A DNA stretch of 30,339 nucleotides from Hymenobacteraceae bacterium (GCA_031425525.1 JANPJM010000087.1:1-30339); one strand, 5' to 3'. Shown: positions 1,926-23,367, numbered from the stretch's first letter. Notes: generated from the letters alone by a model not told the origin. Program-made: numbers and translations.

Positions 1926-1966
1926 GGGTTAATGAAGTTAGAGGACAGAAGTTACGCAGTCTCCTT

Positions 1967-3844
1967 CTAATAATTCCCCAGTTCCTCCAGTTGCATTCGG
2001 TAGAGGCGGGCGGTGGTTTTGGCGGTTTTCACGATCCGTCGGGCTATTTCGAGGTTCATTTTCGGGTGATTGAGCGCCTGCTCCAGGTTCCGGAAATGGT
2101 TTTCGTCGGCTAACCCGTGATAGGTAAAAAAAGACACCTGATCGTCGGTCAGCCCGAGCTGCTGCTGCATCAGCGCGCCCCAGCCGGCCGCCAGGCGCTT
2201 GCCGATGCCCTCGATGATGAACATCGCGCCGAGCAGGTCGATAGGGTTCGGCTGGCTGGCCTGCTGGAACACAAAGGCGCTCAACGCCAGGCTGCCGATG
2301 TTCTTTTCGCCGCGCCGGATGATTTCCGGATCCTCGCCAAGGTTCTCGAAATTGCGCTCCAGGAGTTGGTAATCGCGGTGTTCGGCCGCAGTGTGCCGGA
2401 TGAAGGCCGAGCGCAGCTCGAACAGCTCGATGTCGATGTTCGACGCGGCGCGGGCAATCCACTGCGAGCCATCGATTACCTGCTGGCGCAGGTCGGTGAG
2501 GAGCAGCCGGTAATCGGCTCGACTGAGCTGGCCGTCGTGGATTTTTTGCACGATCGGCACTTTATACAGCCCGGTTTCAAATGCCACCCACACCTGCGTG
2601 AGCTGCCGGACCAGCCACTCCGAGGTTTCGGTTTTTTCGAGGTTCAGCTCCGGGGCCACAATCGGCGGCAGGGCTACTTGCTGCGGGGCCGGGCCGCGGT
2701 CGGCGCCCGCAGCGCCCGCAGCGCCCACTACCCGCAGCTGCATAAAGGCCGTCACGAAACGGCCGCTTTCGGGCACCATACACAGGATGCGCTGGCCGGA
2801 CGTTAACCGGCCGGAATACAGCAGCTCTTCGAGCATGATAAAGAGCGACGCCGAACCGGTATTCCCTTTTGAACTCAGGTTGCTGAACCACTTTTCCGGC
2901 GCGATTTCGGCGCCTCCTTGCTTCATCAGCGCGCGGGTAGGCTCCTTGAAGTATTCCGACGAATAGTGGCAGCAGAGCCAATCGACGGCAGCGACGCTGA
3001 TCTTACCCCGATCAATCAACTCGAAAAAATGGGCGACGCCGGTTTTCACCACGTCGTCGAGCAGACGGATATCCTGCTTGAGGTTGATGGCGCCGGCCCG
3101 CGCCGCCGATTCAAAATCCGGATAGTCGAGCCAGGTAGGTTCGTGGGGGTCTTTATTGCTGTTTTGGCCGGCGTACATACACACCGGAAAGGTGGGCGCG
3201 TGCGAGCGCACCTCGACCCACTCGATGGCGAGCGATAGGCCGCCGGGCGCGGGCTGGTCTTGCACCACGAGGGCCCCGGCGCCGTCGGACAGCATCCAGC
3301 GCAGAAACTCCGTCGCGAACGGCAGCGAAGTCAGCTGCTGCGCCTCGAAACGGGAGGCTTTGAACATTCGGCTCGCAAACTCGCTGCCCACGCACACGGC
3401 GTTGCGCACGTCGCCGCACCGAATCAGGGCGGCGGCATGCTGGAGGGCCATCAGGCTGCTGGCGCACACACTCTGGAAGCTGGCCAACGCGCAGCTCGAA
3501 AAATCAAGCTCGCCGTGTACCATACTGGCAAAGCCGGGCACAGGCAGGTCGGCTTGGGTGGTGCCGGCGCAGAGCAGCTCCACGTCGCGCCCGGTCAGGG
3601 TGCTGCGTTCCAGCGCGCGCTCGATGGCCCGGGCAGCCATCGCGGCATTGGAATACTGGCTGTTCTGCTGCCGGTCGAGGGCGTAGTAACGGGTTTTAAT
3701 CCCGTTTTGCTGGAGAATCCGATCCCGGGCGGCGCTTTTTTTTCCATGCACCTGGCCCAGGTACTCCTCCATTTCGTGGTTAGCCACCGGCGGGCCCGGC
3801 AGAAAAATACCGGCGGCGGTGATGTAGGCCTGCTTCATTTTCAT
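1967..3844 (-). CDS. 3-oxoacyl-ACP synthase III (KAS III/FabH-like thiolase-fold condensing enzyme) fused to a C-terminal heme-oxygenase-like (iron-containing redox enzyme/HDO-type) domain; 625 aa
   Basis: Starts MKMKQAYITAAGIFLPG. Condensing-enzyme motifs are present: active-site Cys in DFSSCALASF, and the GNTGSASLFIMLEELL Asn motif. An Ala/Gly-rich linker is followed by a domain with E..H and YHGLADENHF (H-x3-D-x2-H) motifs typical of heme-oxygenase-like diiron enzymes. The ORF runs continuously to 1967 with no internal start. The ATG at 3842-3844 overlaps the upstream gene stop (ATGA). Confidence 0.7.
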   Translation of the reverse strand: MKMKQAYITAAGIFLPGPPVANHEMEEYLGQVHGKKSAARDRILQQNGIKTRYYALDRQQNSQYSNAAMAARAIERALERSTLTGRDVELLCAGTTQADLPVPGFASMVHGELDFSSCALASFQSVCASSLMALQHAAALIRCGDVRNAVCVGSEFASRMFKASRFEAQQLTSLPFATEFLRWMLSDGAGALVVQDQPAPGGLSLAIEWVEVRSHAPTFPVCMYAGQNSNKDPHEPTWLDYPDFESAARAGAINLKQDIRLLDDVVKTGVAHFFELIDRGKISVAAVDWLCCHYSSEYFKEPTRALMKQGGAEIAPEKWFSNLSSKGNTGSASLFIMLEELLYSGRLTSGQRILCMVPESGRFVTAFMQLRVVGAAGAAGADRGPAPQQVALPPIVAPELNLEKTETSEWLVRQLTQVWVAFETGLYKVPIVQKIHDGQLSRADYRLLLTDLRQQVIDGSQWIARAASNIDIELFELRSAFIRHTAAEHRDYQLLERNFENLGEDPEIIRRGEKNIGSLALSAFVFQQASQPNPIDLLGAMFIIEGIGKRLAAGWGALMQQQLGLTDDQVSFFTYHGLADENHFRNLEQALNHPKMNLEIARRIVKTAKTTARLYRMQLEELGNY

Positions 3845-4572
3845 TTCTTTGTTGGCTGCCGCCAGCCTTCGAGCCGGTCGAGCAGGTCGGTGGCGAAGCC
3901 GTAGCCTCCCCGGTTCAGGTGATGATGACTGCCGTGGCGGGTGGCCAGCAGCGACCAGGGGCGGCCCCGGCCGTCGCCGAACCGGTAATTGCAGTGGCCC
4001 GCGAAATTGAGCAGGATGCTGGCCAGCGGATACAGCAAGATGGCGGTGGCCGAGAAATCGACCCACGGCGCGATGGTCAGCGGCACGGTGCTGAGTAGCA
4101 GCGCCTCGAACCAATGGAAACTGTAAACCGAAAACACCGTGGGCACCTTGGAACGGTGATGCACGTAGTGCACCCGCCGATACAGGAAAGGCAGGTGCAG
4201 CAAGCGGTGCACCCCGAAAAAATGCACCTCGTTCCAGAGCGTGAGCAGCGCCAGCCCCACTACAGTGTTGGCCAGGGTGTCGGGCCGCAGCACCACCACC
4301 CCTTGGCGCACCAGGTACACCATGGCCACGCCCGAGAAGCCAAACAGGAGCATAGAAACCACCGAGTTCCGAATCTCGAACGGCACCTGCCGGCCCGGCG
4401 GCGGCGGCGGCCGGATCTGGTGTACCAGGCCCCACTTCGCCAATTGCCGGCACCCGCCCAGGAAAAGCGGCCCAAGCCCGAAATACAGCACCGCAAAATA
4501 CGCCACGGTGAGCCCGTACACCTGCTGGTACGTGCTGTCGTGCAACATCCAATGGAGCAGTTTGGGGAGCAT
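3841..4572 (-). CDS. fatty acid hydroxylase superfamily integral membrane enzyme (sterol desaturase/CrtZ-like, His-box diiron)
   Basis: 243 aa with several hydrophobic segments and histidine boxes HRLLH, HYVHH, HGSHHH. Its stop TGA (3841-3843) overlaps the KAS III start codon. Confidence 0.75.
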   Translation of the reverse strand: MLPKLLHWMLHDSTYQQVYGLTVAYFAVLYFGLGPLFLGGCRQLAKWGLVHQIRPPPPPGRQVPFEIRNSVVSMLLFGFSGVAMVYLVRQGVVVLRPDTLANTVVGLALLTLWNEVHFFGVHRLLHLPFLYRRVHYVHHRSKVPTVFSVYSFHWFEALLLSTVPLTIAPWVDFSATAILLYPLASILLNFAGHCNYRFGDGRGRPWSLLATRHGSHHHLNRGGYGFATDLLDRLEGWRQPTKK

Positions 4573-4702
4573 AGGGCGGTAGATAAGTAGTCAGCCATAA
4601 GCTTTTAGCTGTAAGCCGCAAGCCAGACCATTGACTGGCAAAAAGTTACGGGGCTCGCGTTAGCAATTTACTTGTGGCGCCGTACTTAAAGGTACTACCC
4701 GG

Positions 4703-4793: not shown

Positions 4794-5570
4794 CTATTTC
4801 AACAGCTCCCCCACCAACGCCTCCAGCCGCGCTACGCGCGCATCGAGCAAGGCGGGCGGCGCGGGCGGGGCCGTCAGCACGGCGTGAATTTGCCAGAGTT
4901 CCAGCACTTCCTTGGGCGGCACTTCGCGCGGGGGGTAATCGGGGTTATCGGCGGTGAGCGATAAGGTGAGATCGGTTTTGACCCCTGCCAGGCGGCGGAT
5001 GAGCGGGCCGGTGCGAACTACCACCGCGTACAACTGGCCGGGGATCGGGGGGGCGGCGCCCGCCGTTAGCCCGGCGCGCGCCGCCACTACCACATCGTGC
5101 GGCCGTAAGCCGCCGCCGGGGTGGGTCATCTCGGAGGTGCCCACCTCGAAGGCGCGCGTCACGGGGCCGAGCGCCAGCGGTAGGATCAGGTGCGGCAGCG
5201 TGGCGACCCACGCGGGATCCTGGCAGCGCATACCGTACGCAAGCTGCTGCGGCAGACCGACGTAGGGCGTCAGATGCGCAAGTTCGTCGGGTGGGGCGGT
5301 GGGCTCGGTGAGGTGCGCCGCGTGCCGCTGGTGCTGGTACACGTCGAAGTGCAGCAGGTCGTTGACGGTCAGCTCCTTGGTGAGCAGCAGGTCGACGGAA
5401 ACGCCGAAGTACTGCGCAATCTGAATCAGTGTGTCGGTTTTGGGCTCGGCCCGCCCCTCTTCCCAGGCCCCGACGCTGGGCCGCGCCAACCCGAACAGCT
5501 CGGCGAAGGCCGCCTGGGAAAGCTTCTTGACGGTGCGAATCTTCCGGATGTTGGCGCCGATACAGGACAT
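4794..5570 (-). CDS. XRE-family HTH transcriptional regulator with a C-terminal LexA/S24-peptidase-like domain
   Basis: N-terminus MSCIGANIRKIRTVKKLSQAAFAELFGLARPSVGAWEEGRAEPKTDTLIQIAQYFGVSVDLL is a classical XRE HTH. The C-terminal part has GTSEM (compare LexA GDSM) and LIRRL where LexA has VKRL. The ATG at 5570 is preferred over the TTG at 5591 used by the ORF track. Confidence 0.7.
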   Translation of the reverse strand: MSCIGANIRKIRTVKKLSQAAFAELFGLARPSVGAWEEGRAEPKTDTLIQIAQYFGVSVDLLLTKELTVNDLLHFDVYQHQRHAAHLTEPTAPPDELAHLTPYVGLPQQLAYGMRCQDPAWVATLPHLILPLALGPVTRAFEVGTSEMTHPGGGLRPHDVVVAARAGLTAGAAPPIPGQLYAVVVRTGPLIRRLAGVKTDLTLSLTADNPDYPPREVPPKEVLELWQIHAVLTAPPAPPALLDARVARLEALVGELLK

Positions 5571-5762
5571 AGGCAAATCTTTTTGGCTCAAACGATGAGC
5601 ATTTTCAAAACTTATTCGTACTATTGTGCCGTAAATCTACGACCAAAAGCTTCAAAACCGCAAGCAAGTTGCTGCATTTTTGAGCAATGCCTGCTTTTAT
5701 GCAGCCCAACTGCCCCCGTCGCCTACCTTAGCCCGCCCTTCCGTACTTACCCGCTCAGCCCG

Positions 5763-6173
5763 ATGCCTAACCCGTACTTCGACAAAATTCGGCAGTACCT
5801 CCACGAGTTGGGCGGTACCGTGGCAGTGGCAGACCCCGCCACCGGCGTTTTTGTGGTCAGCAAGCCCGAATTGGGCATTTACCAGCTCGTGATCGGGTGT
5901 GCCGACCCGCTGCTCATTCTGGAGCAGCACCTGCTCATCCTGCCCGAGCCGACCCTGCGGATTTACCAGCGGCTGCTGCAAAAAAACCGCGACATCATTC
6001 ACGGCGCGTTCGTGCTCGACGATACCGGCCGCCGCGTCATCTTCCGCGATACGCTCCAGATCGGTACTCTCGACCGCGACGAGCTGGAGGCGTGTTTCAA
6101 CTCGCTCGGGCTGCTGCTGAGCGAGTTTGCCACCGAACTGATTGCCTTTTCCAAGCCCACTTTCACTTCCTAA
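5763..6173 (+). CDS. small cytoplasmic protein, YbjN/DUF2170 (YjfI)-like putative sensory-transduction regulator; first gene of the PspA operon
   Basis: 136 aa, starts MPNPYFDKIRQYLHELGG. Sits 16 bp upstream of pspA in the same orientation. E. coli yjfI (DUF2170) precedes the PspA paralog yjfJ in the same way. The family assignment is by gene order and general appearance, not by a verified motif. Confidence 0.35.
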   Translation: MPNPYFDKIRQYLHELGGTVAVADPATGVFVVSKPELGIYQLVIGCADPLLILEQHLLILPEPTLRIYQRLLQKNRDIIHGAFVLDDTGRRVIFRDTLQIGTLDRDELEACFNSLGLLLSEFATELIAFSKPTFTS

Positions 6174-6189
6174 GCCTGACCCCAATCCG

Positions 6190-6906
6190 ATGAGTATTTT
6201 TTCCCGCCTTTTCAAAATCGGGCAGGCCGAAGCGCATTCGGCCGTCGATAAGCTCGAAGACCCCATCAAACTCACCGAACAAGGGCTGCGCGATTTGCGC
6301 ACCGAGTTCGACAAGGCGCTGCATGCCCTCGCCGATGTGAAGGCGATGGTGATCCGGGCGCGCACCGACGGCGAGCAGGCCCGCCAACGCGCCGCCGACT
6401 ACGAAGACAAGGCCATCCACCTGCTCCAGCGGGCGCAGCGCGGCGAGCTGGCCGCCCCCGAAGCCGACCGCCTCGCCGGCGAAGCCCTCCTCAAGAAGGC
6501 CGAACACGACGCCCACGCCACCCGCGCGGCAGCCGATCAGGAACGGTTCGCGCAGTCGGCGAACCAGCTCGATCAGAACGTGCAGCAACTCAAGGGCACG
6601 ATGGAAAAGTGGGAAAACGAGCTAAAAACCCTTAAAGCGCGCGTGCGCGTCAGCACCGCCACCCGCACGATCAACGAGCAGCTCGCGCGCCTCGATTCGA
6701 CGGGCACCATCGCGCTGCTCGAACGGATGAAGGAGCGCGTCGCGCACGACGAGGCGCTGGCGGAGTCGTACGGCGAGCTGGCGCAACGGCACCGCAACGT
6801 TGACGCCGAAATCGACCGCGCCCTGACCCAGGCGCCCGCCGACCGTGCCCAGCACGCGCTCGACGCGCTCAAAGCGCGGCTGGCGCTGCCGCCGGCCAGC
6901 GAGTAA
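6190..6906 (+). CDS. pspA: PspA/IM30 (phage shock protein A/Vipp1, ESCRT-III-like) family protein
   Basis: 238 aa, starts MSIFSRLFKIGQAEAHSAVDKLEDPIKLTEQGLRDLRTEFDKAL..., the canonical PspA N-terminus. The rest is long helices with coiled-coil character and an Ala/Arg/Glu-rich composition. Confidence 0.85.
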   Translation: MSIFSRLFKIGQAEAHSAVDKLEDPIKLTEQGLRDLRTEFDKALHALADVKAMVIRARTDGEQARQRAADYEDKAIHLLQRAQRGELAAPEADRLAGEALLKKAEHDAHATRAAADQERFAQSANQLDQNVQQLKGTMEKWENELKTLKARVRVSTATRTINEQLARLDSTGTIALLERMKERVAHDEALAESYGELAQRHRNVDAEIDRALTQAPADRAQHALDALKARLALPPASE

Positions 6907-6944
6907 CTTGACACTGTACCTGTAGGTAATAGCCAGCGTTCTGT

Positions 6945-7364
6945 ATGGGCTCTTTCAACGTATTGCTTCAATTCGCGCACCATCAGCATTCCGAAAATGA
7001 AGAACACTGGTGTACGACTCCCGAGGAAGTAACGGCGCTGTTCGATGCGTTTGACTGGGCCGGTGAAACCGATAAATCCAACCGGCTCGAACGCGTCTCG
7101 CCGACCCTCAGCGTCGAAACCCGTCAGCCGGCGGCATTGCTGTGGGTGTCATCCATCGGCGACGCGCCCAATCTGGAATTCATCTCCGAGTATACGTTTC
7201 CGGCCGATACTACCCGACTCTTTGGCTTGTGGTCGGGCTCCGGTCGCAAAACCCTGCACACCAGCTCGTTCACTTTATTTCAGGCGCGAGAAGCGGTTGC
7301 GCTGTTCACGCGCCAGGCACAAGCGGAATTACTCGCCCTCTATCATTCAGCCGGCACCCGATGA
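6945..7364 (+). CDS. hypothetical soluble acidic protein (139 aa) between pspA and the YqiJ-like gene
   Basis: ORF with ATG at 6945. Its stop TGA (7362-7364) overlaps the ATG (7361-7363) of the next gene. No recognisable motif. Confidence 0.5.
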   Translation: MGSFNVLLQFAHHQHSENEEHWCTTPEEVTALFDAFDWAGETDKSNRLERVSPTLSVETRQPAALLWVSSIGDAPNLEFISEYTFPADTTRLFGLWSGSGRKTLHTSSFTLFQAREAVALFTRQAQAELLALYHSAGTR

Positions 7365-8017
7365 CCGAACTGCTTCAAGCGGCCGTTGCGCCGCCCAACC
7401 TGCTGCCGACGGCGCTGCTGGTCTTCGTGGTGCTGTACTGGCTGTCGGTGATGATCGGGCTGGTGGGGTCGGATGCGCTCGACCTGCACCACGACTTTGC
7501 GCACGATGTGGGGCACGACGTGGGCCACGACCACCCCGGAACGCACGGCGGCCTCGGCACCGACTGGCTCAACAACGCGCTGGCGTTCTTCAATCTGGGA
7601 CGGGTACCGCTGATGTTCTGGTTGTCGTTCGTGGCGCTGCCGCTCTGGGTGGGCAGTATTCTGGTGAACTACGAACTGGGCAATACGTCGGGGCTGGTTG
7701 GGCTGGCGCTGCTGCTGCCGCTGCTGCTGGTGAGCCTGTTCGTGGCCAAAATCCTGACGCTGCCGTTCGTCAAGCTGTTTGCGGCGATGGAAAAAGACCA
7801 CGGCGCCGGCGCGCAGCCCATCGGCAAGGTGTGTACCGTGGTGTTGCCCGCCACCCACGCGCTGCTCGGCCAGGCCAGTATTCGCCTCCCCGACGGCGCG
7901 CCGCTCACGCTCAACGTGAAAGCACTCTCGCCGACCGCTACCTTTCGCAAAGGCGACCAAGCGCTCGTGATCGATTTCGACGCCCAGCGCCGGTGCTATC
8001 TGATTGAGCCCTATTGA
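7361..8017 (+). CDS. YqiJ/DUF1449-like inner-membrane protein with a C-terminal NfeD-type OB-fold (flotillin partner)
   Basis: 218 aa with an N-terminal TM helix, a His/Asp-rich segment DLHHDFAHDVGHDVGHDHPGTHGG, further TM helices, and a C-terminal beta-rich GKVCTVVLPATHALLGQASIRLPDGAPLTLNVKALSPTATFRKGDQALVIDFD resembling the NfeD OB-fold. It is immediately upstream of a flotillin gene, as in E. coli yqiJ-yqiK. Confidence 0.7.
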   Translation: MTELLQAAVAPPNLLPTALLVFVVLYWLSVMIGLVGSDALDLHHDFAHDVGHDVGHDHPGTHGGLGTDWLNNALAFFNLGRVPLMFWLSFVALPLWVGSILVNYELGNTSGLVGLALLLPLLLVSLFVAKILTLPFVKLFAAMEKDHGAGAQPIGKVCTVVLPATHALLGQASIRLPDGAPLTLNVKALSPTATFRKGDQALVIDFDAQRRCYLIEPY

Positions 8018-8019
8018 TC

Positions 8020-8051
8020 GCTGATGTAGCTGATTGTCTGATTCCGCTGAT
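8020..8051 (+). promoter_or_regulatory. four tandem (G)CTGAT motifs at 9-bp spacing (8020, 8029, 8037, 8046), with additional TGAT motifs at 8001 and 8015
   Basis: Read directly: gCTGATgtaGCTGATtgtCTGATtccGCTGATttg. Lies in the 140-bp spacer before the flotillin gene. Confidence 0.4.
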
Positions 8052-8102
8052 TTGTTGAGTTGCCACATCGAACCCTACTAAACCGTCTGCTTCCTGCGCT
8101 GC

Positions 8103-8132
8103 GGGCGGGCACAAGGCCCGCCCCTACTTTTT
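8103..8132 (+). promoter_or_regulatory. GC hairpin (GGGCGGGC-acaag-GCCCGCCC) followed by CTACTTTTT; either an internal intrinsic terminator/attenuator or a Bacteroidota -7 promoter box (TAnnTTTG-like) for the flotillin gene
   Basis: 8-bp perfect stem followed by a T-run, 26 bp upstream of the flotillin ATG at 8158. The same hairpin+TACTTTTT arrangement recurs at 10333-10362. Confidence 0.45.
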
Positions 8133-8157
8133 CGGTTATCTTCCCCAATTCCCTCCA

Positions 8158-10332
8158 ATGATTGCCCAACTTTCGTGGGCGGCGCTGATCATCATCGGCC
8201 TGCTGCTCCTCGGTTTTCTTTCGATTCTGGTGCGCATGTACCAGAAAGCCGTGCAGGGCGAAGCCCTGGTGCGCACCGGCCTCGGCGACACGAAAGTGTC
8301 GTTTTCGGGGATGTTCGTCATTCCCATCATTCACCGGTTGGAGGTGATGGATATTACCCTCAAATCGATGGTGATTGCGCGTCACGGGGCCGAGGGGTTG
8401 GTGTGTAAAGACAACCTGCGGGCCGACGTGAAGGTCAATTTTTTCGTGCAGGTCAATAAAACGCCCGGCGATGTGATTCACGTCGCGCAGAGCATCGGCT
8501 GCCGGCGCGCTTCCGACCCGGCGGCGCTCGAAAACCTCTTCGACGCCAAGTTTTCCGAAGCGCTGAAAGCCGTCGGTAAACGGTTCGATTTTATCGAGCT
8601 GTATAATTCCCGCGAAGAATTCAAGCAGGAAATTTTGCGCGTCATCGGCACCGACCTCAACGGCTACGTCCTCGACGACTGCGCGATTGATTACCTGGAG
8701 CAAACGCCGTTGTCGGCGCTGAATGAAAATAATATTCTGGACGCCGAGGGCATCAAGAAAATCATTGCGCTGACGTCGGAACAGAAGATTCAGGCCAACC
8801 AGATCGAGCGCGACAAACAGCGCACGATTAAAAAACAGGACGTGGAAGCGCAGGAAACCATTTTGCAGCTCGAAAAGCAATTGGTGGAAAATCAGGAAAA
8901 GCAGAAGCGCGAAATTGCCAATATCAAAGCGCGCGAGGCGGCCGAAACCGAGAAAGTCATTCAGGAAGAACGGTTGAAGAGCGAGCGCGCCAAGATTCAG
9001 ACCGACGAAGAATTGCAGGTGGCCGGGCAAAACCGCGACCGGCAGATCATCGTGGCCGAGCGGAACAAGGAGCGCACCGACGCCATCGAAACCGAGCGGG
9101 TGGCCCAGGCCAAAGCGCTGGAAGCCAACGAGCGCGAGCGCATCGTGGCGCTGGCGCAGATCGAGAAGGAAAAAGCCCTCGAAGAAGAGCGCAAGAATAT
9201 TCAGGGCATCATCCGTGAGCGGATTACGGTGGAAAAAGCCACCGTGCAGGAGGAGGAGAAAATCAAGGATACCCGCGCCCAGGCCGGCGCCGAGCGCGAA
9301 AAAATGGTAGCGCTCACAGCCGCCCAGCAACTGAACCAGGCCGCAACCATCGCGCTGGTCGGGCAGGCCGAAATGGGCAAGCAAGCGGCCGAGTTCCGGG
9401 CGAAACAGGCGTTGATCGATGCCGAAGCCGAGCGCGGCACCGCCGAGCAGCACGCGCTGGCCGTGAAAGTGCTGGCGGAGGCAGAGGCGAGCAAAACGTC
9501 GGCCGTGGGGCTGGCCGAGGCCCAAGTGATGCAGGCCAAAGCGGGCGCGCGCCAGAAGGAAGGCGAAGCGGAAGCGCACGTCATGCAGCTTACGGCGACG
9601 GCCGAGGCGCAGGCGATTCAGGTGAAAGCGGTGGCGCAGGCCGAGGCCGACGAGAAGTTGGGGATGGTGGCGGCGAAAGTCAATCGCGAAAAAGGGCTCG
9701 CCGACGCCAGCATCATCGAAGCGCGCGCCGACGCCGACCAGAAGAAAGGTTTTGCCGAAGCCGCCGTGAGCGAGCAGAAATTTGCGGTGGAAGCCAAAGG
9801 CATCGAGGCGAAAGCCGACGCGATGAAGAAGCTCGACGGGGTGGGCAAAGACCACGAAGAGTTCAAGCTCCGGCTCGACAAGGAGAAGTCGGTGGAGCTG
9901 GCGCAGATCAGCATCCAGAAGGATATCGCTGCCGCGCAGAGCGCCGTTATCGGCGAGGCCCTCAAGGCGGCGAAAATCGACATCGTGGGCGGCGAAACGA
10001 TGTTCTTCGACCAGATCATCGGCTCGATCACGAAGGGTAAGATGATCGACCGGGCGGTGCAGAACAGCGAGGTGCTGGGCACGGTGAAGGACGCGTTTTT
10101 CGGCCCCGGCGCGGGCGGCGACGGCGACTTCAAAACCAATATGCGGCGGTTCGTCGAGCAGTTCGGCCTTAAGTCCGACGACATCAAGAACCTGAGCATT
10201 TCGGCCCTGATGCTGCAAATGATGCAAACCACCGACTCCGACAGCACGCGTTCCGCGCTCCGCCAACTGCTCGACACGGCCACCACGCTGGGGCTCGCCG
10301 ACAAGCCCGTGCGGACGATTGATTTGACGTAA
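8158..10332 (+). CDS. flotillin-family protein (SPFH/band-7 domain, YqiK-like) with a very long coiled-coil region; 724 aa
   Basis: N-terminal TM MIAQLSWAALIIIGLLLLGFLSILV, then an SPFH-like domain (VRTGLGDTKVSFSGMFVIPIIHRLEVMDITLKSMVI...), then hundreds of residues of E/K/A/Q-rich heptad-like repeats typical of flotillins. Confidence 0.85.
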   Translation: MIAQLSWAALIIIGLLLLGFLSILVRMYQKAVQGEALVRTGLGDTKVSFSGMFVIPIIHRLEVMDITLKSMVIARHGAEGLVCKDNLRADVKVNFFVQVNKTPGDVIHVAQSIGCRRASDPAALENLFDAKFSEALKAVGKRFDFIELYNSREEFKQEILRVIGTDLNGYVLDDCAIDYLEQTPLSALNENNILDAEGIKKIIALTSEQKIQANQIERDKQRTIKKQDVEAQETILQLEKQLVENQEKQKREIANIKAREAAETEKVIQEERLKSERAKIQTDEELQVAGQNRDRQIIVAERNKERTDAIETERVAQAKALEANERERIVALAQIEKEKALEEERKNIQGIIRERITVEKATVQEEEKIKDTRAQAGAEREKMVALTAAQQLNQAATIALVGQAEMGKQAAEFRAKQALIDAEAERGTAEQHALAVKVLAEAEASKTSAVGLAEAQVMQAKAGARQKEGEAEAHVMQLTATAEAQAIQVKAVAQAEADEKLGMVAAKVNREKGLADASIIEARADADQKKGFAEAAVSEQKFAVEAKGIEAKADAMKKLDGVGKDHEEFKLRLDKEKSVELAQISIQKDIAAAQSAVIGEALKAAKIDIVGGETMFFDQIIGSITKGKMIDRAVQNSEVLGTVKDAFFGPGAGGDGDFKTNMRRFVEQFGLKSDDIKNLSISALMLQMMQTTDSDSTRSALRQLLDTATTLGLADKPVRTIDLT

Positions 10333-10362
10333 GCGCGGACATTCTGTCCGCGCTACTTTTTC
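10333..10362 (+). terminator. hairpin GCGCGGACA-ttc-TGTCCGCGC followed by TACTTTTTT; intrinsic terminator/attenuator between the flotillin and giant ATPase genes (alternatively a -7 promoter box)
   Basis: Perfect 9-bp stem with a 3-nt loop and a T-tract, starting directly after the flotillin stop (10330-10332). The motif ends 6 bp before the ATG at 10368. Confidence 0.5.
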
Positions 10363-10367
10363 TCCGA

Positions 10368-13300
10368 ATGGAAACCCCTCCTCCCCCGCAGCTCGAAGGC
10401 GGCACGTACGAAATTCTGCGCGCCCGCCTGACCAAGAGCGGCGCCGACCTGCGCGCGCGCCTCACGGCCCTCAATGCCGAGCGTAAGCAGGTATTCGGGG
10501 CCGTCGATACGCGCCTGATCGGCACGGGCCGGATCACCACCGAACACCATTGCGTGCCCTGGAATATGGTGCCGGTGGGCGGGCGGTTTCTGTTCGGTTT
10601 CAACGTGGTACTGGGGCTGAAAACGGAGGTTGAGCTGAGCGACGTATTCGGTATCTACGACTACACCGACCACGATTTCCGCCCCCAGCCGCTCGATGCG
10701 TTGCGCGACCCCCGGTTCGAGGAGGAGTTTCGGAACCTCTACCGCTTCTACCGGCAGACCCAGTTTTCGGCCTTTGCCGTGCGCGGGCCGCACCTGTTCA
10801 TGGTGTTCCGGGTGGGCAAGAGCGCCACGGATGTCAAGACGTTCAAGTGGCTGATCGGCGCCGACGACCGCCTGACCTACCTCGACAACCGCTCCGACCA
10901 CGAGTACACCTTTCCGCCGGCGCAGGAATTCAGCTGGAAGCGCGCCACCCGCGATATGCAGCGCGGCGGGCGCCACCCGCACGTCTCGATTGAAGACCGC
11001 TGCTTCGTGGAAACCGTCGGCGGCGACCTCACGATCAAAGTCGAAGACAATACCGAAATCGGCCAGGGCATCCTCTCCGAGCCGGTCGAGCAGAAAGATC
11101 AGTCGCTCGATGACGCCGAGATTCACTACGCCGTAGTCGGGCATTTGGTGCTGCTCAAGATTCGGCCGTATCAGGAAGCCGCATTTCGCCATTTTTTGTA
11201 CAACGGCAAGACCCGGCAAGCGCGCCGCCTCGATGCGCTGGCCGACGCCGTGCAGTTGCTGCCCGACGGTCAGGGGTTGATTTTCCCCGGCGGCGTGGCC
11301 TTGCAGAACGGCGAAGGCAAACAGTTTGAGAACGCCCCCGCCGACACGGTTTTCGAGCGGCGCGTGGCCTCGCCCAACGGCGAAGACTACCTGTACTGCT
11401 TCTATCAGCGCACCAGCGGGCAGTATTGGCTGCTGAGCTACAACCGCATCGAGCAGCGCGTGGAGGCGCCGATTGCCTGCCACGGCTTCGCCCTCTTCGA
11501 CAACGGCGAGCTGTGCTTTTTCCGCGCCGAAGAAGAGCCGCGCAAGCACCACGCCGTGCAAATCTGGCAGACGCCCTACACCGCGCCCGACTACGAGTTA
11601 CCCGTCACGCGCGACTCGTACCTCTACAAACTCGGCAACAAGGAGATCGTGCGGGCGCTCGCCGAAGGGCAGGAAGTGCTGACCCTTACGGCCAAGGAAG
11701 ACAGCTACGCCGGCCTGTACCTCGACCTCGGCCGCCTCACCACCACCCTGCTCGACGCCTACCACTGGCTCACCGAACCCGCCGCCCAGACGCTGGCCGA
11801 GCCGTTGCGCGAGATTCGGCAGACGGCGCTGGCCGCCGTCGAGGAGTTCGATAAGGTGCAGCGGATCCGCAGCGCCACGGCCGCCGAAACCACCCTCGTG
11901 CTGACCCGCGCCACCGACCTGAGCGCCCGCCTGAAGCGCGCCGCGCCCGACACCGTGGCCGCCTACGTGCAGGCGCTGGCCGAGCTGCGGGCCGCGCGCG
12001 GCGAGGTGGTGGGCCTACGCGAACTGCGCTACGCCGACCTGCCCGCCATCGAGCGGGCCGCCACCGAATTGGAACTGCTCACCCAGGTGACGGCGAACCA
12101 GACGGTCGAATTCCTGCTCCGGCCCGACGCCCTCGCGCCCTACGAGCAGCGCGTGACGGCCATTGCCGACGGCATCGAGGGGGTGCAGAAAACGGTGGAA
12201 GCCGATGCGCGGGAGCAGGAAATCGGGGCGGTGTCGGGCGAGTTGGAACTGCTGATCGATGTAGTGGGCGGGCTGCCCATCCCCGACCCCACCCAAACCA
12301 CCGCCATCATCGAGCGGCTGTCGGCGATCTACGCCCGCTTCAACCAGATCAGGGCCGCCCTCAAGCGGCGGCGGCAAAGTTTGGCGGGCACCGAAGCCCA
12401 GGCGCAGTTTGCCGCCCAGCTCCGGCTGCTCGATCAAACGCTCGTCAATTACCTCGATCTGAGCGATACACCCGCCAAGTGCGACGAGTACCAGACCCGT
12501 CTGCTGGTGCAGCTCGAAGAAATCGAGGGGCGTTTTCCGGAGTTCGAAGGATTTTTGGAGCGCCTCACCGAGAAGCGCGAAGCCGTCCTCGAAGCGTTCG
12601 AGACGCGCAAGGCGGCCCTGGTGGCGGCCCGCAATCAGCGCGCAACGGCCCTGCTGCAAGCCGCCGAGCGCCTACTGACCGCCGTGCGCAGCCGGGTAGC
12701 GCGCCTGACCACCGCCGCCGAGCTGAACGGCTACTTTGCCGCCGATGTGCTGGTGGCGAAGGTGCGGCAGACGGCCGCCGAGCTGCTCGCCCTCGGCGAC
12801 CCGGTGAAGGCCGACGACGTGCAGGGGCGCCTCAAAACCCTGCGCGACGAGAGTCTGCGCCAACTCAAAGACCGCACGGAACTGTACACCGATGGCGGGC
12901 AGGTGATCCGGTTCGGGCCGCACGCCTTCACCGTAAACCAGCAACCGCTGGAACTCACGACGGTCTTGCGCGACGAGGTACTGCACTTTCACCTCACGGG
13001 CACCAACTTTTTTCAGCCCATCGCCGACCCCGCCATCGAGGCTGCCCGCGACCTGTGGGATCAGCCGCTACCGTCGGAAAACGCCCACGTGTACCGCGCC
13101 GAGTGGCTGGCGTGGCAGTTGCTGGAAGCAGCGGCCCACCCCGTCCCCGCCGACCCCGAACGCGGCACGCCGGCCGTGCTGTCGCTCCCGGAACTGGCGC
13201 ACCTCACGCCCCCCGAACTGCTGGCCTACGTGCAGACCGCGATGGCCCCGCGCTACCCCGAAGGCTACCTCAAGGGTGTCCACGACCACGACGGCGCCCT

Positions 13301-15293
13301 ACTCCTCGAAGCCCTCGTGCGCCTGGCCCGCACCGCCGACCTGCTGCGCTACCCCGCCGAGGCCCGCGCCGCCGCCGCGCTGTGGTGGGCGCAATTTGCG
13401 CCGCCCGAGCGCCGCGCGGCCTGGGAACTGCGGTTGCGCGGCCTCGGGCAGTTGCAGCGGGTGTTCCCCGGCGCCGATGCCAGTGCGGCGCTACGCGCCG
13501 AAATCGGGGCCGAGCTGGCGGCCTTCCTCACGCAAACCCAGCTTTTCGACCCGGCCGCCGTGGAAGAAGCGGCCGATTACCTTGTCACGGAGCGCGCGCG
13601 CGGCACCGCGTTCATCATCGCCGCCGAAGCCGCCGAACTGAGCCGCCTGTTCTGGCAGACCGTGCGCGAGCGCCAGGCCGATGCCGTCTTCGATGAGTCG
13701 ATGGCGGAGTTGGCCGCGCAACCCGCCGCCCGCTTTGCGCTGGCGCGCGAGTGGCTCGGCGCCTTTCTCGCCCAGCAACCCGCCGACGCACCGGCCGGCG
13801 CCCTGCGCCCGTGGCTGAGCGAGGCGGCATTGTTGCTCGTCACCGATTCCTTTGACGCCGCGCACGTCGTGAGCGTGCCCACGCGCCTCACGCTCGACGG
13901 TTTGCAGGGTACGCACCCGCGCATCCACGAACGCCGTTACGAGCTGGATTTTCCGGAGTTCCGCCACCGGCTGCGGCATTTCGGGCGCGTTACGGCGCCC
14001 CGGTTTGCCCACTTCACGGCCCTCAAAAAGGAGCGGCTTGCGCACGCCGCCGAGGCGCTGCGGCTCGCCGATTTTCAGCCGCGCGTGCTGTCGTCGTTCG
14101 TGCGCAACCGCCTGCTCGACCAGGTGTACCTGCCGCTGATCGGGGCTAACCTCGCCAAACAGATCGGCACGGCCGGCACCGACAAGCGCACCGACCTGAT
14201 GGGCCTACTGCTGCTCATCTCGCCGCCGGGCTACGGCAAAACCACGCTCATCGAGTACGTGGCGGCGCGCCTGGGGCTGGTGTTCGTGAAGGTCAGCGGC
14301 CCGGCGCTGGGGCATCACGTTACGGCTGTAGACCCCGAACAGGCGCCCAACGCCGGGGCCCGCGACGAGCTGCGGAAGCTGAACCTGGCGTTCGAGATGG
14401 GCGACAACGTGCTGATTTACCTCGATGACATCCAGCACTGCAACCCCGAGTTTCTGCAAAAATTCATCTCCCTCTGCGACGCCCAGCGCCGCATCGAGGG
14501 CGTGTGGGAGGGCCGCCCGCGCACCTACGATTTTCGGGGCCGCAAAGTGGCCGTCGTGATGGCCGGCAACCCCTACACCGAATCGGGCGACGTGTTTCGG
14601 CTGCCCGATATGCTCGCCAACCGCGCCGACATCTACAACCTCGGCGACATCATCGGCACGTCCGCCGACGCCTTCCGGCTTTCTTACCTCGAAAACAGCC
14701 TCACGGCGAACCCCGTTTTGCGGCGCCTCGCCACCCGTAGTCCCGCCGACTTTTACCCGATTCTGCGCCTCGCCGAAAGCGCCGATCAGGGGGGCGCCGC
14801 CGAGCCGCTCGACCTCGAAGCGAATCACTCGCCGGAAGAAATAGCGGAGTACGTGGCCGTGTTGCGCCACCTGCTGATCCTGCGCGACGCCGTGGTGCAG
14901 GTCAATGAGGCGTATATCGCGTCGGCGGCTCAGGCCCAGGATTACCGCACCGAGCCGCCCTTCCGGCTGCAAGGCTCCTACCGCAACATGGCCAAGCTCG
15001 CCGAGAAGGTGCAGCCCCTGCTCAACGCCGCCGAGCTGCAAGGGCTCCTCGCCGACCACTACGAAAGCGAGGCCCAGACCCTTACCACCGCCGCCGAAGC
15101 CAACCTGCTCAAGCTCCGCGAGCTACTCGGTTGGCAAACCCCCGCCGACACCGCGCGCTGGGCCGAAATCAAGGCGACGTTTCAGCACAATCTGCGCCTG
15201 AGCAGCGGCGGCCAAAACGCCCAGATGCTCGAGCAGCTCACGAGCATTGCCGGGGGGCTGGCGGGGATTCGGGAGGTGTTGGGGCGGGGGTAG
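10368..15293 (+). CDS. giant (1641 aa) multidomain protein: unknown N-terminal domain, about 800 aa helical/coiled-coil middle, C-terminal MoxR/dynein-type AAA+ (AAA_5-like) ATPase module
   Basis: Uninterrupted 4926-bp ORF. Walker A LLLLISPPGYGKTTLIEY (about 14228-14245), Walker B NVLIYLDDIQH (about 14409-14440), and sensor-1/Arg-finger region VAVVMAGNPYTESGDVFRLPDMLANRADIY. The middle is Ala/Leu/Glu/Arg-rich helical sequence. The antisense strand also has long open frames, as expected for this composition. Confidence 0.8.
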   Translation: METPPPPQLEGGTYEILRARLTKSGADLRARLTALNAERKQVFGAVDTRLIGTGRITTEHHCVPWNMVPVGGRFLFGFNVVLGLKTEVELSDVFGIYDYTDHDFRPQPLDALRDPRFEEEFRNLYRFYRQTQFSAFAVRGPHLFMVFRVGKSATDVKTFKWLIGADDRLTYLDNRSDHEYTFPPAQEFSWKRATRDMQRGGRHPHVSIEDRCFVETVGGDLTIKVEDNTEIGQGILSEPVEQKDQSLDDAEIHYAVVGHLVLLKIRPYQEAAFRHFLYNGKTRQARRLDALADAVQLLPDGQGLIFPGGVALQNGEGKQFENAPADTVFERRVASPNGEDYLYCFYQRTSGQYWLLSYNRIEQRVEAPIACHGFALFDNGELCFFRAEEEPRKHHAVQIWQTPYTAPDYELPVTRDSYLYKLGNKEIVRALAEGQEVLTLTAKEDSYAGLYLDLGRLTTTLLDAYHWLTEPAAQTLAEPLREIRQTALAAVEEFDKVQRIRSATAAETTLVLTRATDLSARLKRAAPDTVAAYVQALAELRAARGEVVGLRELRYADLPAIERAATELELLTQVTANQTVEFLLRPDALAPYEQRVTAIADGIEGVQKTVEADAREQEIGAVSGELELLIDVVGGLPIPDPTQTTAIIERLSAIYARFNQIRAALKRRRQSLAGTEAQAQFAAQLRLLDQTLVNYLDLSDTPAKCDEYQTRLLVQLEEIEGRFPEFEGFLERLTEKREAVLEAFETRKAALVAARNQRATALLQAAERLLTAVRSRVARLTTAAELNGYFAADVLVAKVRQTAAELLALGDPVKADDVQGRLKTLRDESLRQLKDRTELYTDGGQVIRFGPHAFTVNQQPLELTTVLRDEVLHFHLTGTNFFQPIADPAIEAARDLWDQPLPSENAHVYRAEWLAWQLLEAAAHPVPADPERGTPAVLSLPELAHLTPPELLAYVQTAMAPRYPEGYLKGVHDHDGALLLEALVRLARTADLLRYPAEARAAAALWWAQFAPPERRAAWELRLRGLGQLQRVFPGADASAALRAEIGAELAAFLTQTQLFDPAAVEEAADYLVTERARGTAFIIAAEAAELSRLFWQTVRERQADAVFDESMAELAAQPAARFALAREWLGAFLAQQPADAPAGALRPWLSEAALLLVTDSFDAAHVVSVPTRLTLDGLQGTHPRIHERRYELDFPEFRHRLRHFGRVTAPRFAHFTALKKERLAHAAEALRLADFQPRVLSSFVRNRLLDQVYLPLIGANLAKQIGTAGTDKRTDLMGLLLLISPPGYGKTTLIEYVAARLGLVFVKVSGPALGHHVTAVDPEQAPNAGARDELRKLNLAFEMGDNVLIYLDDIQHCNPEFLQKFISLCDAQRRIEGVWEGRPRTYDFRGRKVAVVMAGNPYTESGDVFRLPDMLANRADIYNLGDIIGTSADAFRLSYLENSLTANPVLRRLATRSPADFYPILRLAESADQGGAAEPLDLEANHSPEEIAEYVAVLRHLLILRDAVVQVNEAYIASAAQAQDYRTEPPFRLQGSYRNMAKLAEKVQPLLNAAELQGLLADHYESEAQTLTTAAEANLLKLRELLGWQTPADTARWAEIKATFQHNLRLSSGGQNAQMLEQLTSIAGGLAGIREVLGRG

Positions 15294-15603: not shown

Positions 15604-16953
15604 ATGAGCGCCACGAACTACCACCTGAATCTTTTCCGGCACTATGCCGCCAACACCACCGACGAGGTGCTGGAAAACAACCTGACCCGCGCGCTGGCCC
15701 TGTGCCTGATGCACGATCCGGTTTTCCTGTACGCGTTCTTGGAAGAGATTCTGACCCGCGACGCTTTACATCAGGAGCTTCACTTGCTGAATGATGATGC
15801 GAGCCGAATTGTGATTGACGTCCAGCGGCCGGTCAACCAACTGGCGGCTTGTGAGACGTTGTACGCGGTAGCGCTCACCGCTGGCCCACTCGACGCGACC
15901 GATTATGAGGCTGCGTCAGCCCACACCACAGACGCGCCGATCACCGACCTGACCATTCGGCTCAACGATGTGTTGATTTTGGTGGAAGTGAAACGAACCG
16001 GCGAAGACTGTCTCGGCCAGCTCAAACAACAAGTTGGCGTTTACCGGCGTGAAGTGGCCGCCAAAGAAGGCACGACTGATGTTGCCCCTACCGTGCGAAC
16101 CTTGAGTTGGGCGCGTACCACGCGCCTGGCGACCGATCTACACCACTTTCGTCAATTAGCGGGCGCACCTCAACCGTTTACCGCCGATCTGGTGGAGTTG
16201 ATCCGCTCCAATTACCCTACTTGGGACGAAGCGCTTTACCTCAGAGCGATTCAGTTTCGGACTCCCGAGGGCAAAATCAAGTGGGAAGACATCAACCGCC
16301 GCCTGCACGACATTCAGTATCGCACCTTCGGCGACCGAATGAAGTGGTTTCACGACCGGGTATCGATGCCCATTGATCAGCCGTGGGCCAGCGAAGTCAT
16401 TAGCCAGCCCGATTGGGACGAGGCCGAACAACGCGCCTACATCGCGTTACAGGTATGGCCCGGCAACACGAAAGGTCAAGGATGGCCGATTTACAGCCGT
16501 TCGCTCGATTGGACCACGCGCGATTCGCTGGAAATCGACGGGAAGCGTTACCCACTCGTCGTTATTCAGCAGTTCAAGTTTTCGCACTTCAACAAGTTCA
16601 TCGGCGAGTACGATATGGACGAGTTGCCGGTGCAGTACGTGCCCAATTTTCGTAGCTGGGCGGCTTACGAGAAGTATTCGGGCCAGAAGTGGCGCGATAG
16701 CTGGCCTCAACTCGAAGCGATGCTCGACGCCGATACCGGCGGCCACTGGCGGCAAGTCTATCAGATGTGGCAGGACAAGTTCATCAACTCCAACCGCAAT
16801 TACTGCAATCTGTCGCTGGGCTTCTATGTGAAGGTGCGACTTCCTTACGAAGAGTTGCGCGCCCTTGACTCCGGGCCGGAGCAGTGGGTTGCGGTGGGCA
16901 GTAAGTTTAAAGCCGCCATTCAGGCATTGGTCGATCTAGTAGAAGGACGGTGA
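15604..16953 (+). CDS. hypothetical protein (449 aa) with an N-terminal PD-(D/E)xK (RecB/Cas4-like) nuclease signature; lower GC than flanks
   Basis: ...APITDLTIRLNDVLILVEVKRTGEDCLGQLKQQVGVY: D ... E-V-K followed by a Q...Y motif, as in restriction-endonuclease-like folds. GC is about 55% versus 65-70% for neighbours. A 310-bp spacer separates it from the giant gene. Confidence 0.55.
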   Translation: MSATNYHLNLFRHYAANTTDEVLENNLTRALALCLMHDPVFLYAFLEEILTRDALHQELHLLNDDASRIVIDVQRPVNQLAACETLYAVALTAGPLDATDYEAASAHTTDAPITDLTIRLNDVLILVEVKRTGEDCLGQLKQQVGVYRREVAAKEGTTDVAPTVRTLSWARTTRLATDLHHFRQLAGAPQPFTADLVELIRSNYPTWDEALYLRAIQFRTPEGKIKWEDINRRLHDIQYRTFGDRMKWFHDRVSMPIDQPWASEVISQPDWDEAEQRAYIALQVWPGNTKGQGWPIYSRSLDWTTRDSLEIDGKRYPLVVIQQFKFSHFNKFIGEYDMDELPVQYVPNFRSWAAYEKYSGQKWRDSWPQLEAMLDADTGGHWRQVYQMWQDKFINSNRNYCNLSLGFYVKVRLPYEELRALDSGPEQWVAVGSKFKAAIQALVDLVEGR

Positions 16954-17070: not shown

Positions 17071-17478
17071 GTGGAAACCATCTTCGAACTGCTGATACCG
17101 CGCCGGCCCAAGTCGCTGCAAGCCAAGAACGCCAAGTTGCAGCAGTGGAAAAGCTACGTGCGCGACTTGGCCCGTACCGAATGGAACGGCCCACCGCACG
17201 TAGCGCCGGCTTTCCGGGTAACGCTGGTGTATTTATGCGATGTGGACGCGGCCGACATCGACAACATCATCAAGCCGATTCAGGATGCGCTGGTGGGCGT
17301 GGTGATGCCCGACGATAATTTGGTAAGCGATGTTGACAGTCACGGCCGGCTACTGGATCAGGCGTTCGACCTGACCGATTTGCCTGCCTTGCTCGTTCAA
17401 GGCGCCCAGGCGCAACGGGAATGCGTTTACGTGCGCGTCTTGGCGGGTGCGGTTTTACCTCTCACGCACTTTCTTTAA
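17071..17478 (+). CDS. rusA: RusA-family crossover junction endodeoxyribonuclease (Holliday junction resolvase)
   Basis: 135 aa from a GTG start: ...LIPRRPKSLQAKNAKLQQWKSYVRDLA...CDVDAADIDNIIKPIQDALVGVVMPDDNLV. This matches the RusA LPWPPSNN...DLDNLxKxxxDAL...DDxQV motif arrangement. Confidence 0.7.
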   Translation: METIFELLIPRRPKSLQAKNAKLQQWKSYVRDLARTEWNGPPHVAPAFRVTLVYLCDVDAADIDNIIKPIQDALVGVVMPDDNLVSDVDSHGRLLDQAFDLTDLPALLVQGAQAQRECVYVRVLAGAVLPLTHFL

Positions 17479-17485
17479 TACTACA

Positions 17486-21508: not shown

Positions 21509-21612
21509 ACCGAAGGTTGGGGCCGCAAAGTAGCGCCGTTCGTGCCGCCAGCCGCGTGCCACGCCCATAAACCAGTGATTATAAAATAGTTGAATTTCGA
21601 GGCCCGAAACGA

Positions 21613-21651
21613 GTGTATCGAAAGCGTACAGGCGGTGTATCGGGAGCGTAC
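21613..21651 (+). promoter_or_regulatory. two 17-bp direct repeats GTGTATCG-NN-AGCGTAC, 22 bp centre to centre; candidate enhancer (UAS) for the NtrC-like regulator
   Basis: gtgtatcgaaagcgtac (21613-21629) and gtgtatcgggagcgtac (21635-21651), about 60-95 bp upstream of the TGGCAC element. Confidence 0.45.
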
Positions 21652-21705
21652 GGTCGGGCGGTCGCGCTTTTTCGCAATTTCCTGATTATCAGCGCATAAA
21701 AATAC

Positions 21706-21719
21706 TGGCACATTTCTGC
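21706..21719 (+). promoter_or_regulatory. TGGCAC-ATTTC-TGC, a sigma-54 -24/-12-like element 31 bp upstream of the HlyD-adaptor start; GG-to-GC spacing is 9 rather than the canonical 10, and the sequence is also an inverted repeat TGGCA-N6-TGCCA
   Basis: ctggcacatttctgcc read directly. A divergent sigma-54 activator gene is adjacent. The spacing deviation lowers confidence. Confidence 0.35.
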
Positions 21720-21749
21720 CATCGGCGTTCGGTCATCAACCCAACCATC

Positions 21750-23003: not shown

Positions 23004-23047
23004 GGCGCTTCTGGCCGCTGGTTTTCAGCTGCGAATAAGTGAAAGAC

Positions 23048-23312: not shown

Positions 23313-23367
23313 GCATCGAACAAAAAAAGATAAACGACCGACAATCAACCGACAACTATCACCCACC

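Follow-up and report, generated by a model that had tools for sequence, protein, structure and literature searches.

The 30,339-nucleotide (nt) stretch of DNA from a Hymenobacteraceae bacterium (GCA_031425525.1 JANPJM010000087.1:1-30339), called here the window at its full length, carries between positions 5763 and 15293 six genes that code for a CesT/Tir-like chaperone, a PspA/IM30 family protein, a 139-residue protein, a YqiJ-like membrane protein, a flotillin and a giant ATPase of 1641 residues. Sequence comparison places the locus in a conserved, membrane-associated operon class, the core of which is formed by the YqiJ-like protein, the YqiK-type flotillin and the giant ATPase. The core is extended in Bacteroidota by an upstream CesT-PspA pair and by a divergent regulator with a helix-turn-helix (HTH) and an S24-like domain, while in some Gammaproteobacteria the equivalent position is taken by a DUF2170 gene and a YjfJ-type PspA gene. 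The locus of the window is a member of an operon class known from comparative genomics, with a small lineage-specific addition.

The conservation of this linkage was studied by a pattern scan of one genome per species, which found relatives of the giant protein in at least 584 genomes. Eighty loci were fetched, and their open reading frames (ORFs) were called and searched with the window proteins, with iteration by hidden Markov models. The 60 loci in which 7 kb or more of sequence precede the giant gene were used for counting a flotillin gene upstream of the giant gene, the YqiJ and flotillin genes together, and the full regulator/CesT-PspA-YqiJ-flotillin set:

Bacteroidota: 28 loci; flotillin 27; YqiJ and flotillin 27; full set 21.
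Planctomycetota: 9 loci; flotillin 9; YqiJ and flotillin 9; full set 0.
Verrucomicrobiota: 16 loci; flotillin 16; YqiJ and flotillin 12; full set 0.
Bacillota: 5 loci; flotillin 5; YqiJ and flotillin 5; full set 0.
Desulfobacterota: 2 loci; flotillin 1; YqiJ and flotillin 1; full set 0.
Total, five phyla: 60 loci; flotillin 58; YqiJ and flotillin 54; full set 21.

The arrangement is not a product of chance, since it recurs across phyla. A PspA gene is located at most 10 kb upstream of the giant gene in 22 of the 60 loci, against 58 for flotillin; the 32 loci from Planctomycetota, Verrucomicrobiota, Bacillota and Desulfobacterota all lack it within that distance. YqiJ, flotillin and the ATPase make up the obligate unit, to which PspA is added. 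The linkage proposed in an earlier account of this DNA, made without database searches (the sequence-only reading), is therefore conserved and not an adjacency peculiar to one genome, flotillin and giant genes being together at 58 of 60 loci.

Four gammaproteobacterial loci were added by a separate, profile-based protein search. Bacterioplanes, Hahella and Pseudomaricurvus present the order DUF2170 (YjfI-type)-PspA-YqiJ-flotillin-giant. In Pleionea the core triad is present, and a DUF2170-PspA operon lies on the opposite strand at a distance of about 4 kb. The PspAs of the gammaproteobacterial operons are of the YjfJ type; they contain a 2-residue insert and are 22% identical with the window PspA. 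Those of the Bacteroidota operons, including that of the window, in which the insert is absent, are not. The presence of two different PspA subfamilies and two CesT/Tir families on one core argues for functional coupling rather than for the shared ancestry of a single arrangement, and these sequence relationships are good evidence that the chaperone/PspA pairs are coupled to the core. In Sulfidibacter (Acidobacteriota) the giant gene is preceded by two unannotated genes that resemble YqiJ and flotillin by size alone, and PspA is absent. Three of the four gammaproteobacterial clusters have a rhomboid protease gene as a neighbour, which in two of them follows the giant gene and in the third precedes yqiJ, and an FtsH gene lies just upstream of the cluster in Pseudomaricurvus. 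The rhomboid and/or zinc-ribbon genes beside the gammaproteobacterial clusters are located at 15361-16494 in L085, 12387-13490 in L090, 3747-4307 in L091 and 12372-12920 in L092, an association that was not found in the available part of the account of the operon by Ravi et al. 2024 (PMC11237479).

That account, by Ravi, Anantharaman, Aravind, Gennaro et al. (mSystems 2024, preprint 2020; PMC11237479), had already described the operon class computationally, divergent regulator included, so that the sequence-only reading was wrong in taking the system as undescribed. Its example is ANH61663.1 of Dokdonia donghaensis, in which CesT/Tir-PspA is combined with YqiJ/YuaF, a band-7/flotillin protein and a beta-propeller/coiled-coil/AAA+ protein, and the Dokdonia row of its Table S3 includes a divergent cHTH+protease gene. 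Abbreviated versions without PspA were reported to be more widespread, a role in membrane dynamics was proposed and ESCRT-like analogies were raised. The window shares with this class the gene content, the order and the divergent regulator, and the PspA-less core is widespread in the present sample as in theirs. The features of the class present in the window are a CesT/Tir-superfamily gene immediately 5' of the PspA gene (16 bp apart), a YqiJ/YuaF-type protein with multiple transmembrane (TM) segments, a flotillin, an AAA+ domain fused to an N-terminal beta-propeller and a coiled coil, and the divergent regulator, the protease-like part of which is weakly supported. The window differs from the Dokdonia row in having an extra 139-residue gene between pspA and yqiJ, and from the published description in having terminator-like hairpins in two gaps.

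Several known systems contain parts of this arrangement. Genes 4 and 5 of the window have their homologues, in equal order and adjacency, in E. coli yqiJ-yqiK; the latter locus, however, has no giant ATPase, PspA or CesT gene, and YqiK is of 553 residues against 724 for the window flotillin. In E. coli yjfI-yjfJ, as in the window, a chaperone-like gene (DUF2170, CesT/Tir superfamily) is located immediately upstream of a PspA-family gene, and the gammaproteobacterial versions of the operon use exactly this kind of pair, DUF2170 plus YjfJ-type PspA. The window gene is instead of the CesT_Tir_1 family, and in E. coli the pair is associated with polyamine genes instead of flotillin. The sequence-only reading held that PspA and SPFH modules normally occur in separate loci, but B. 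subtilis pspA-ydjGHI already pairs PspA with an SPFH gene in one operon. According to a 2025 review, the functional link of that operon is supported by experiment, PspA depending on the SPFH protein for its link to the membrane (Scholz et al. 2021, cited therein). The B. subtilis operon differs from the window in its TPM-domain and zinc-ribbon partners and in lacking YqiJ, CesT and an AAA+ ATPase.

In the window, the base composition of which is about 63% G+C, ORF calling gave six ORFs on the plus strand, separated in gene order by gaps of 16, 38, -4 (ATGA overlap), 140 and 35 bp, and the divergent ORF on the minus strand. Positions, strand and gaps given in the sequence-only reading were all reproduced, and its family assignments proved right, by Pfam matches for genes 1, 2 and 6 and by profile alignment for genes 4 and 5. 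The features of the locus are the following:

4794-5570, minus strand: divergent regulator ORF, 258 residues, with an XRE-type HTH, a S24/LexA-like C-terminal domain and a short C-terminal helix.
5571-5762: divergent intergenic region, 192 bp, with two inverted repeats.
5763-6173, plus strand: CesT/Tir-like chaperone, 136 residues (Pfam CesT_Tir_1).
6190-6906, plus strand: PspA/IM30 family protein of the ESCRT-III superfamily, 238 residues (Pfam PspA_IM30).
6945-7364, plus strand: lineage-specific gene for a 139-residue protein of no known family, with an ATGA overlap with the yqiJ-like gene.
7361-8017, plus strand: YqiJ-like (NfeD-type) multi-pass membrane protein, 218 residues, including an acidic loop and, at the C-terminus, a beta domain.
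8103-8123, plus strand: terminator-like hairpin in the yqiJ-flotillin gap, 8 G-C pairs followed by CTACTTTTTC.
8158-10332, plus strand: YqiK-type flotillin, 724 residues, with an N-terminal membrane anchor, a divergent SPFH domain, a long Ala/Glu/Lys-rich coiled coil and a C-terminal domain.
10332-10354, plus strand: terminator- or attenuator-like hairpin in the flotillin-giant gap, a 10-bp stem followed by ACTTTTTCTC.
10368-15293, plus strand: giant ATPase, 1641 residues, with an N-terminal helix, a beta-propeller, helical bundles, an AAA+ domain and a helical C-terminus.
10512-11570, plus strand: beta-propeller domain of the giant ATPase (residues 49-401, inside DUF3686), from the AlphaFold2 model and Foldseek.
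11619-14162, plus strand: helical-bundle/coiled-coil region of the giant ATPase (residues 418-1265), DUF7902 being residues 587-670.
14163-14807, plus strand: AAA+ ATPase domain of the giant ATPase (residues 1266-1480), from conserved motifs and the model.

The giant protein matches DUF3686 (E 7.6e-183), DUF7902, AAA_5 (32.6 bits, cut-off 22) and AAA (27.5 bits, also passing) in Pfam, and has 3879 relatives at E<=1e-10; its best named relatives are from Hymenobacter species (64-69% identity), with a Hymenobacteraceae metagenome-assembled genome at 91%. AlphaFold2 modelled residues 1-720 with a predicted local distance difference test score (pLDDT) of 85.6, as a helix, about 27 beta strands (residues 49-401) and then long helices. 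The propeller part gave 61 Foldseek matches in the PDB at E<=1e-3, and the top 50 were mostly beta-propeller proteins such as prolyl oligopeptidase, DCAF1 WD40, Elp1, IFT-A and clathrin heavy chain. In the models, the order of propeller and helical repeat loosely recalls membrane-coat proteins, two of which, clathrin and IFT-A, are among these matches. The model of residues 1001-1641 (pLDDT 80.5) presents an AAA+ core with a beta-hairpin ahead of the sensor-1 strand. The family alignment showed Walker A SPPGYGKTT, Walker B LDD, N1401 and R1419 to be invariant. The best Foldseek matches of the AAA+ core were the second nucleotide-binding domain of ClpB/Skd3, NorQ/CbbQ, MCM, RuvB and one Vps4 entry, all of them weak (E>=2e-3), and a family-profile search of PDB sequences gave weak matches only, at the level of Walker A (Rix7, p97, RuvB). 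Pfam detected no VWA protein, the usual partner of MoxR/AAA_5 ATPases, among the seven proteins of the cluster, and no MIT domain in the giant protein, the N-terminus of which is the helix preceding the propeller. Neither a protease domain nor a transmembrane segment nor a DNA-binding domain was detected in it. Public records call P0006 and many other homologues 'DNA repair ATPase' or 'DNA repair protein'; the name is apparently inherited from the Pfam description of DUF3686, and neither domain content nor neighbourhood supports it.

The flotillin and its YqiJ-like partner were recognized at the level of families. The flotillin gene product alone matched nothing in Pfam or NCBIfam, even at E=10. 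Its family, with a mean identity of 57% across phyla, gave a profile that hhalign aligned with E. coli YqiK over 383 columns (probability 100, E 1.1e-40), residues 20-426 falling onto YqiK 25-422, and because of this alignment the identity of the flotillin is resolved. Pfam Band_7 is matched by 6 of 40 family members (best E 8.8e-15), and PDB searches with either the sequence or the family profile gave a weak match to the QmcA coiled coil and nothing else. The gene 4 protein alone matches YqiJ_N below threshold. The profile of its family (41 members) was aligned to full-length E. coli YqiJ over 186 columns (hhalign probability 96.7, E 3.6e-10), the C-terminal beta-rich part included; 15 of the 41 members match Pfam YqiJ_N and none matches Pfam NfeD. 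Window positions 9001-10000 show an AT skew of 0.46 and a GC skew of 0.14, coincident with the Ala/Glu/Lys-rich coiled-coil stretch of the flotillin gene, and the skew seems to be due to the composition of the repetitive protein sequence.

The gene 1 protein matches CesT_Tir_1 at residues 3-131 (E 4.5e-48) and, weakly, YbjN (E 2.6e-5), and a CesT-like gene is located directly upstream of the PspA gene in 21 of the 28 Bacteroidota loci. The gene 2 protein matches PspA_IM30 (E 1.1e-38) and is 28% identical with YjfJ (E 9e-8) and 27% identical with PspA (E 3e-6) of E. coli. An operon-specific motif resembling a Vps4 MIT-interacting motif at the PspA C-terminus was considered and dropped, the LxxLKxxLG sequence being common to E. 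coli PspA and YjfJ.

The divergent regulator matches HTH_3 (E 1.9e-12) and Peptidase_S24 (E 0.008). In the family alignment the XRE-type HTH is highly conserved and the protein ends in a conserved helix. The regulator profile aligned with E. coli LexA at hhalign probability 56 (E 1e-4). In this alignment, of modest confidence, the position of LexA Ser119 is variable in the family (Thr149 in the window) and that of Lys156 is taken by a conserved Arg. The Ser/Lys cleavage dyad looks absent from the sequence, which makes self-cleavage unlikely, and the S24-like domain would probably serve in sensing or dimerization, both tentatively. The regulator, put forward in the sequence-only reading as the candidate controller, indeed falls within the conserved block, 21 of 28 Bacteroidota loci having the full set. 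The inverted repeats of the divergent region (5652-5662/5673-5683 and 5671-5677/5699-5705) are candidate operator sites, although this we only infer. Neither a sigma-70-type promoter nor a match to the Bacteroidota -7 motif TAnnTTTG was found in 5571-5762.

The two strongest terminator-like hairpins of the coding strand in the window fall exactly in intergenic gaps, at 8103-8123 and 10332-10354, and both are trailed by a T-run. The second (dG -21 kcal/mol, z -4.8), which none of 200 shuffles matched in folding, ends 13 nt ahead of the ATG of the giant gene. Comparable hairpins are present in 10 of 62 related flotillin-giant gaps (about 16%), while in shuffles 0.74 were expected, with a maximum of 4. 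Partial termination at these hairpins could serve to set stoichiometry, or they could act in processing or stability. Co-transcription of all six genes is plausible, but the single transcription unit of the sequence-only reading is not assured in view of the strong terminator-like structures in two gaps.

The 139-residue protein, which the same reading counted as part of the system, does not belong to the conserved set: its gene was found at none of the 80 related genome loci, nor in L002. As judged from its distribution, it is a narrow-lineage addition outside the conserved operon components. No family was found for it in Pfam, NCBIfam, PADLOC or PHROGs, and among 5.8 billion clusters two matches were found, itself and P0122, with 63% identity. 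The source of P0122 is a 646-bp metagenome contig (L083) that is syntenic with the window, with the end of PspA, the 139-residue homologue, the ATGA overlap and the start of YqiJ. The comparison of both genes gave pN 0.23 and pS 0.80 (synonymous changes saturated), with a 15-nt indel that keeps the frame; hence the gene is real and under purifying selection. In L002, the giant protein of which is 82% identical, the pspA-yqiJ junction consists of 333 bp of non-coding, palindrome-rich DNA, with REP-like palindromes (CCCCTCCCCGGCTGGGGAGGGG and a second copy) at 6440-6710, where the window has the 139-residue gene. Other junctions contain small genes as well: Hahella has a 79-residue gene between PspA and YqiJ, and the flotillin-giant junctions of L004, L005, L010, L033, L045, L029, L013 and L038 contain unrelated small inserted genes, which resemble, as judged by reading the sequences, a DUF559-like endonuclease, an IS200-like transposase, a ParE-like toxin and small TM proteins. 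These were rejected as relatives of the 139-residue gene, being heterogeneous and unrelated. The variety of small genes at the junctions evidently means that these tolerate insertions.

From the gene identities, the domain architecture and the conserved linkage, all of them observed, we infer the physical interactions and activities of a flotillin-centred membrane machine, with the giant ATPase as its motor, CesT-PspA as a stress arm and the regulator in control, a proposal that on balance seems probable. Flotillin and YqiJ would form an SPFH-type oligomeric assembly on the cytoplasmic side of the inner membrane. The giant ATPase would oligomerize through its AAA+ domain and dock on the flotillin-YqiJ assembly by its propeller and helical region, using ATP to remodel, disassemble or service it. 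PspA would be a membrane-sealing effector, restrained or delivered by the CesT-like chaperone and recruited to the flotillin site under envelope stress. The regulator would keep the operon repressed as long as its non-catalytic S24-like domain senses no signal, and the hairpins after the yqiJ and flotillin genes may lower the expression of the downstream genes relative to the structural proteins. The pairing of an SPFH cage with an AAA+ machine in HflK/C-FtsH provides the analogy for the flotillin-ATPase part; the membrane-dynamics role put forward by Ravi et al. and the dependence of PspA on an SPFH protein in B. subtilis also speak for the proposal. Several observations weigh against this proposal. 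The Walker B motif is Asp-Asp rather than Asp-Glu (residues 1353-1354, window 14424-14429) and is so in 18 of 18 diverse members, for which reason ATP turnover may be slow or regulatory. In two loci, L025 and L035, the giant gene has no flotillin gene within 10 kb. The databases name the giant protein a DNA repair ATPase, the S24-like assignment of the regulator depends on weak scores, the hairpins between genes leave co-transcription unestablished, and literature searches found no experimental paper on the giant ATPase or DUF3686 and, for the operon class, nothing beyond the comparative genomics of Ravi et al.

Two other readings keep the ATPase at the membrane and change its substrate. The giant protein might unfold or extract membrane or membrane-proximal client proteins within the flotillin microdomain, in the manner of FtsH within HflK/C, the scaffold itself not being remodelled. 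Such enclosure of an AAA+ machine by an SPFH scaffold at the inner membrane is established there; ClpB and Skd3, both disaggregases, are among the closest structural matches; and the rhomboid gene at three of four gammaproteobacterial loci and the FtsH gene upstream in Pseudomaricurvus would fit such a function. FtsH is nevertheless a membrane-anchored protease of the classical AAA clade, whereas the giant protein is soluble, with a divergent AAA+ fold and without protease domain or transmembrane segment, and no client gene is conserved within the operon, so that this reading is considered rather unlikely. The sequence-only reading had instead seen in the giant ATPase a functional analogue of Vps4 that disassembles and recycles the PspA polymer, flotillin being only the platform. 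The likeness to ESCRT-III/Vps4 (CdvB/CdvC) lies in the co-operonic position of a gene for an ESCRT-III-superfamily polymer, PspA in the window, and one for an AAA+ ATPase, which is found in 21 of 28 Bacteroidota loci and three of the four sampled gammaproteobacterial ones. The 2025 review says that a Vps4-like ATPase appears absent in bacteria, which leaves the niche open, and to this are added the ESCRT-like analogies of Ravi et al. and the single Vps4 structure among the weak Foldseek matches. The analogy is weakened by the partners, the ATPase being tied to flotillin at 58 of the 60 loci and to YqiJ plus flotillin at 54, but to PspA at 22, with none of the 32 loci from the other four phyla of the count having PspA within 10 kb while flotillin is nearly always there. 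It is weakened likewise by the protein, which is about four times larger than Vps4, begins with a propeller, has no MIT domain and is PspA-less in most phyla sampled. Its AAA+ domain has a pre-sensor-1 hairpin and is matched at least as well by ClpB, NorQ, MCM and RuvB, and the C-terminal LxxLKxxLG of PspA is generic to PspA, that of E. coli included. A Vps4-like role is accordingly judged unlikely.

The remaining readings detach the cluster from membrane remodelling. The chance that the giant protein is a true DNA repair ATPase, with an adjacency to membrane genes that is functionally meaningless, is extremely small: the Pfam text for DUF3686 ('ATPase involved in DNA repair'), the NCBI name of most homologues and weak RuvB_N matches speak for it, but in five phyla the adjoining genes code for membrane proteins (flotillin, YqiJ) and in no case for repair functions, the likeness to RuvB does not extend beyond the Walker A region, a search for a DNA-binding domain found none, and the name is apparently an inherited annotation, a literature search for DUF3686 having found no paper. 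An anti-phage island of the abortive-infection type, killing or sealing the membrane on infection, is hardly more credible. The regulator does resemble repressors of the XRE/CI type, which are frequent in defence systems, the operon junctions of several genomes contain small genes of a mobile or toxin-like kind, and an AHJR-like nuclease gene lies 2 kb downstream; PADLOC, however, gave generic matches only (HTH, coiled-coil, P-loop) and PHROGs none, and one gene order is kept across whole Bacteroidota families and several phyla, unlike patchy defence islands.

At stake with the flotillin-centred machine is the manner in which bacteria dismantle, regulate and energize PspA/Vipp1 polymers and flotillin assemblies, for the operon class ties both types of scaffold to a very large AAA+ protein. 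It is possible, but doubtful, that a bacterial flotillin assembly has in the giant protein its first dedicated ATP-driven remodeller, coupling PspA too in Bacteroidota and some Gammaproteobacteria, with the 139-residue protein as a new adaptor. In that case it would supply the energy-consuming step missing from bacterial ESCRT-III-like membrane repair. The idea is directly testable, since the at least 584 species genomes include genera with cultured members (Flavobacterium, Chryseobacterium, Bacteroides). The architecture and the hypothesis were already published by Ravi et al. 2024, and this limits the value of the window locus in itself. Added here are the quantification of flotillin, and not PspA, as the constant partner of the ATPase, the structural check of propeller and AAA+ domain, the apparent loss of the regulator dyad, the intergenic hairpins and the lineage-specific extra gene.

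The neighbourhood of the operon in the window is of mixed content. Downstream, a 449-residue ORF (15604-16953) has no match in Pfam or PHROGs, and 17447-18142, 2 kb past the operon, is the AHJR-like gene, of restriction-endonuclease fold; neither is kept beside the operon in the closest relative, L001. The upstream neighbours on the minus strand (1023-4621) are a DUF6999 protein and an 884-residue ORF with KAS-III/thiolase-like matches and, at its C-terminus, a match to haem-oxygenase-like (iron-containing redox) enzymes. Farther downstream, 18694-26505 contains a histidine kinase and sigma-54 response regulator pair on the minus strand, and then an efflux set of HlyD/ABC/MacB type on the plus strand.

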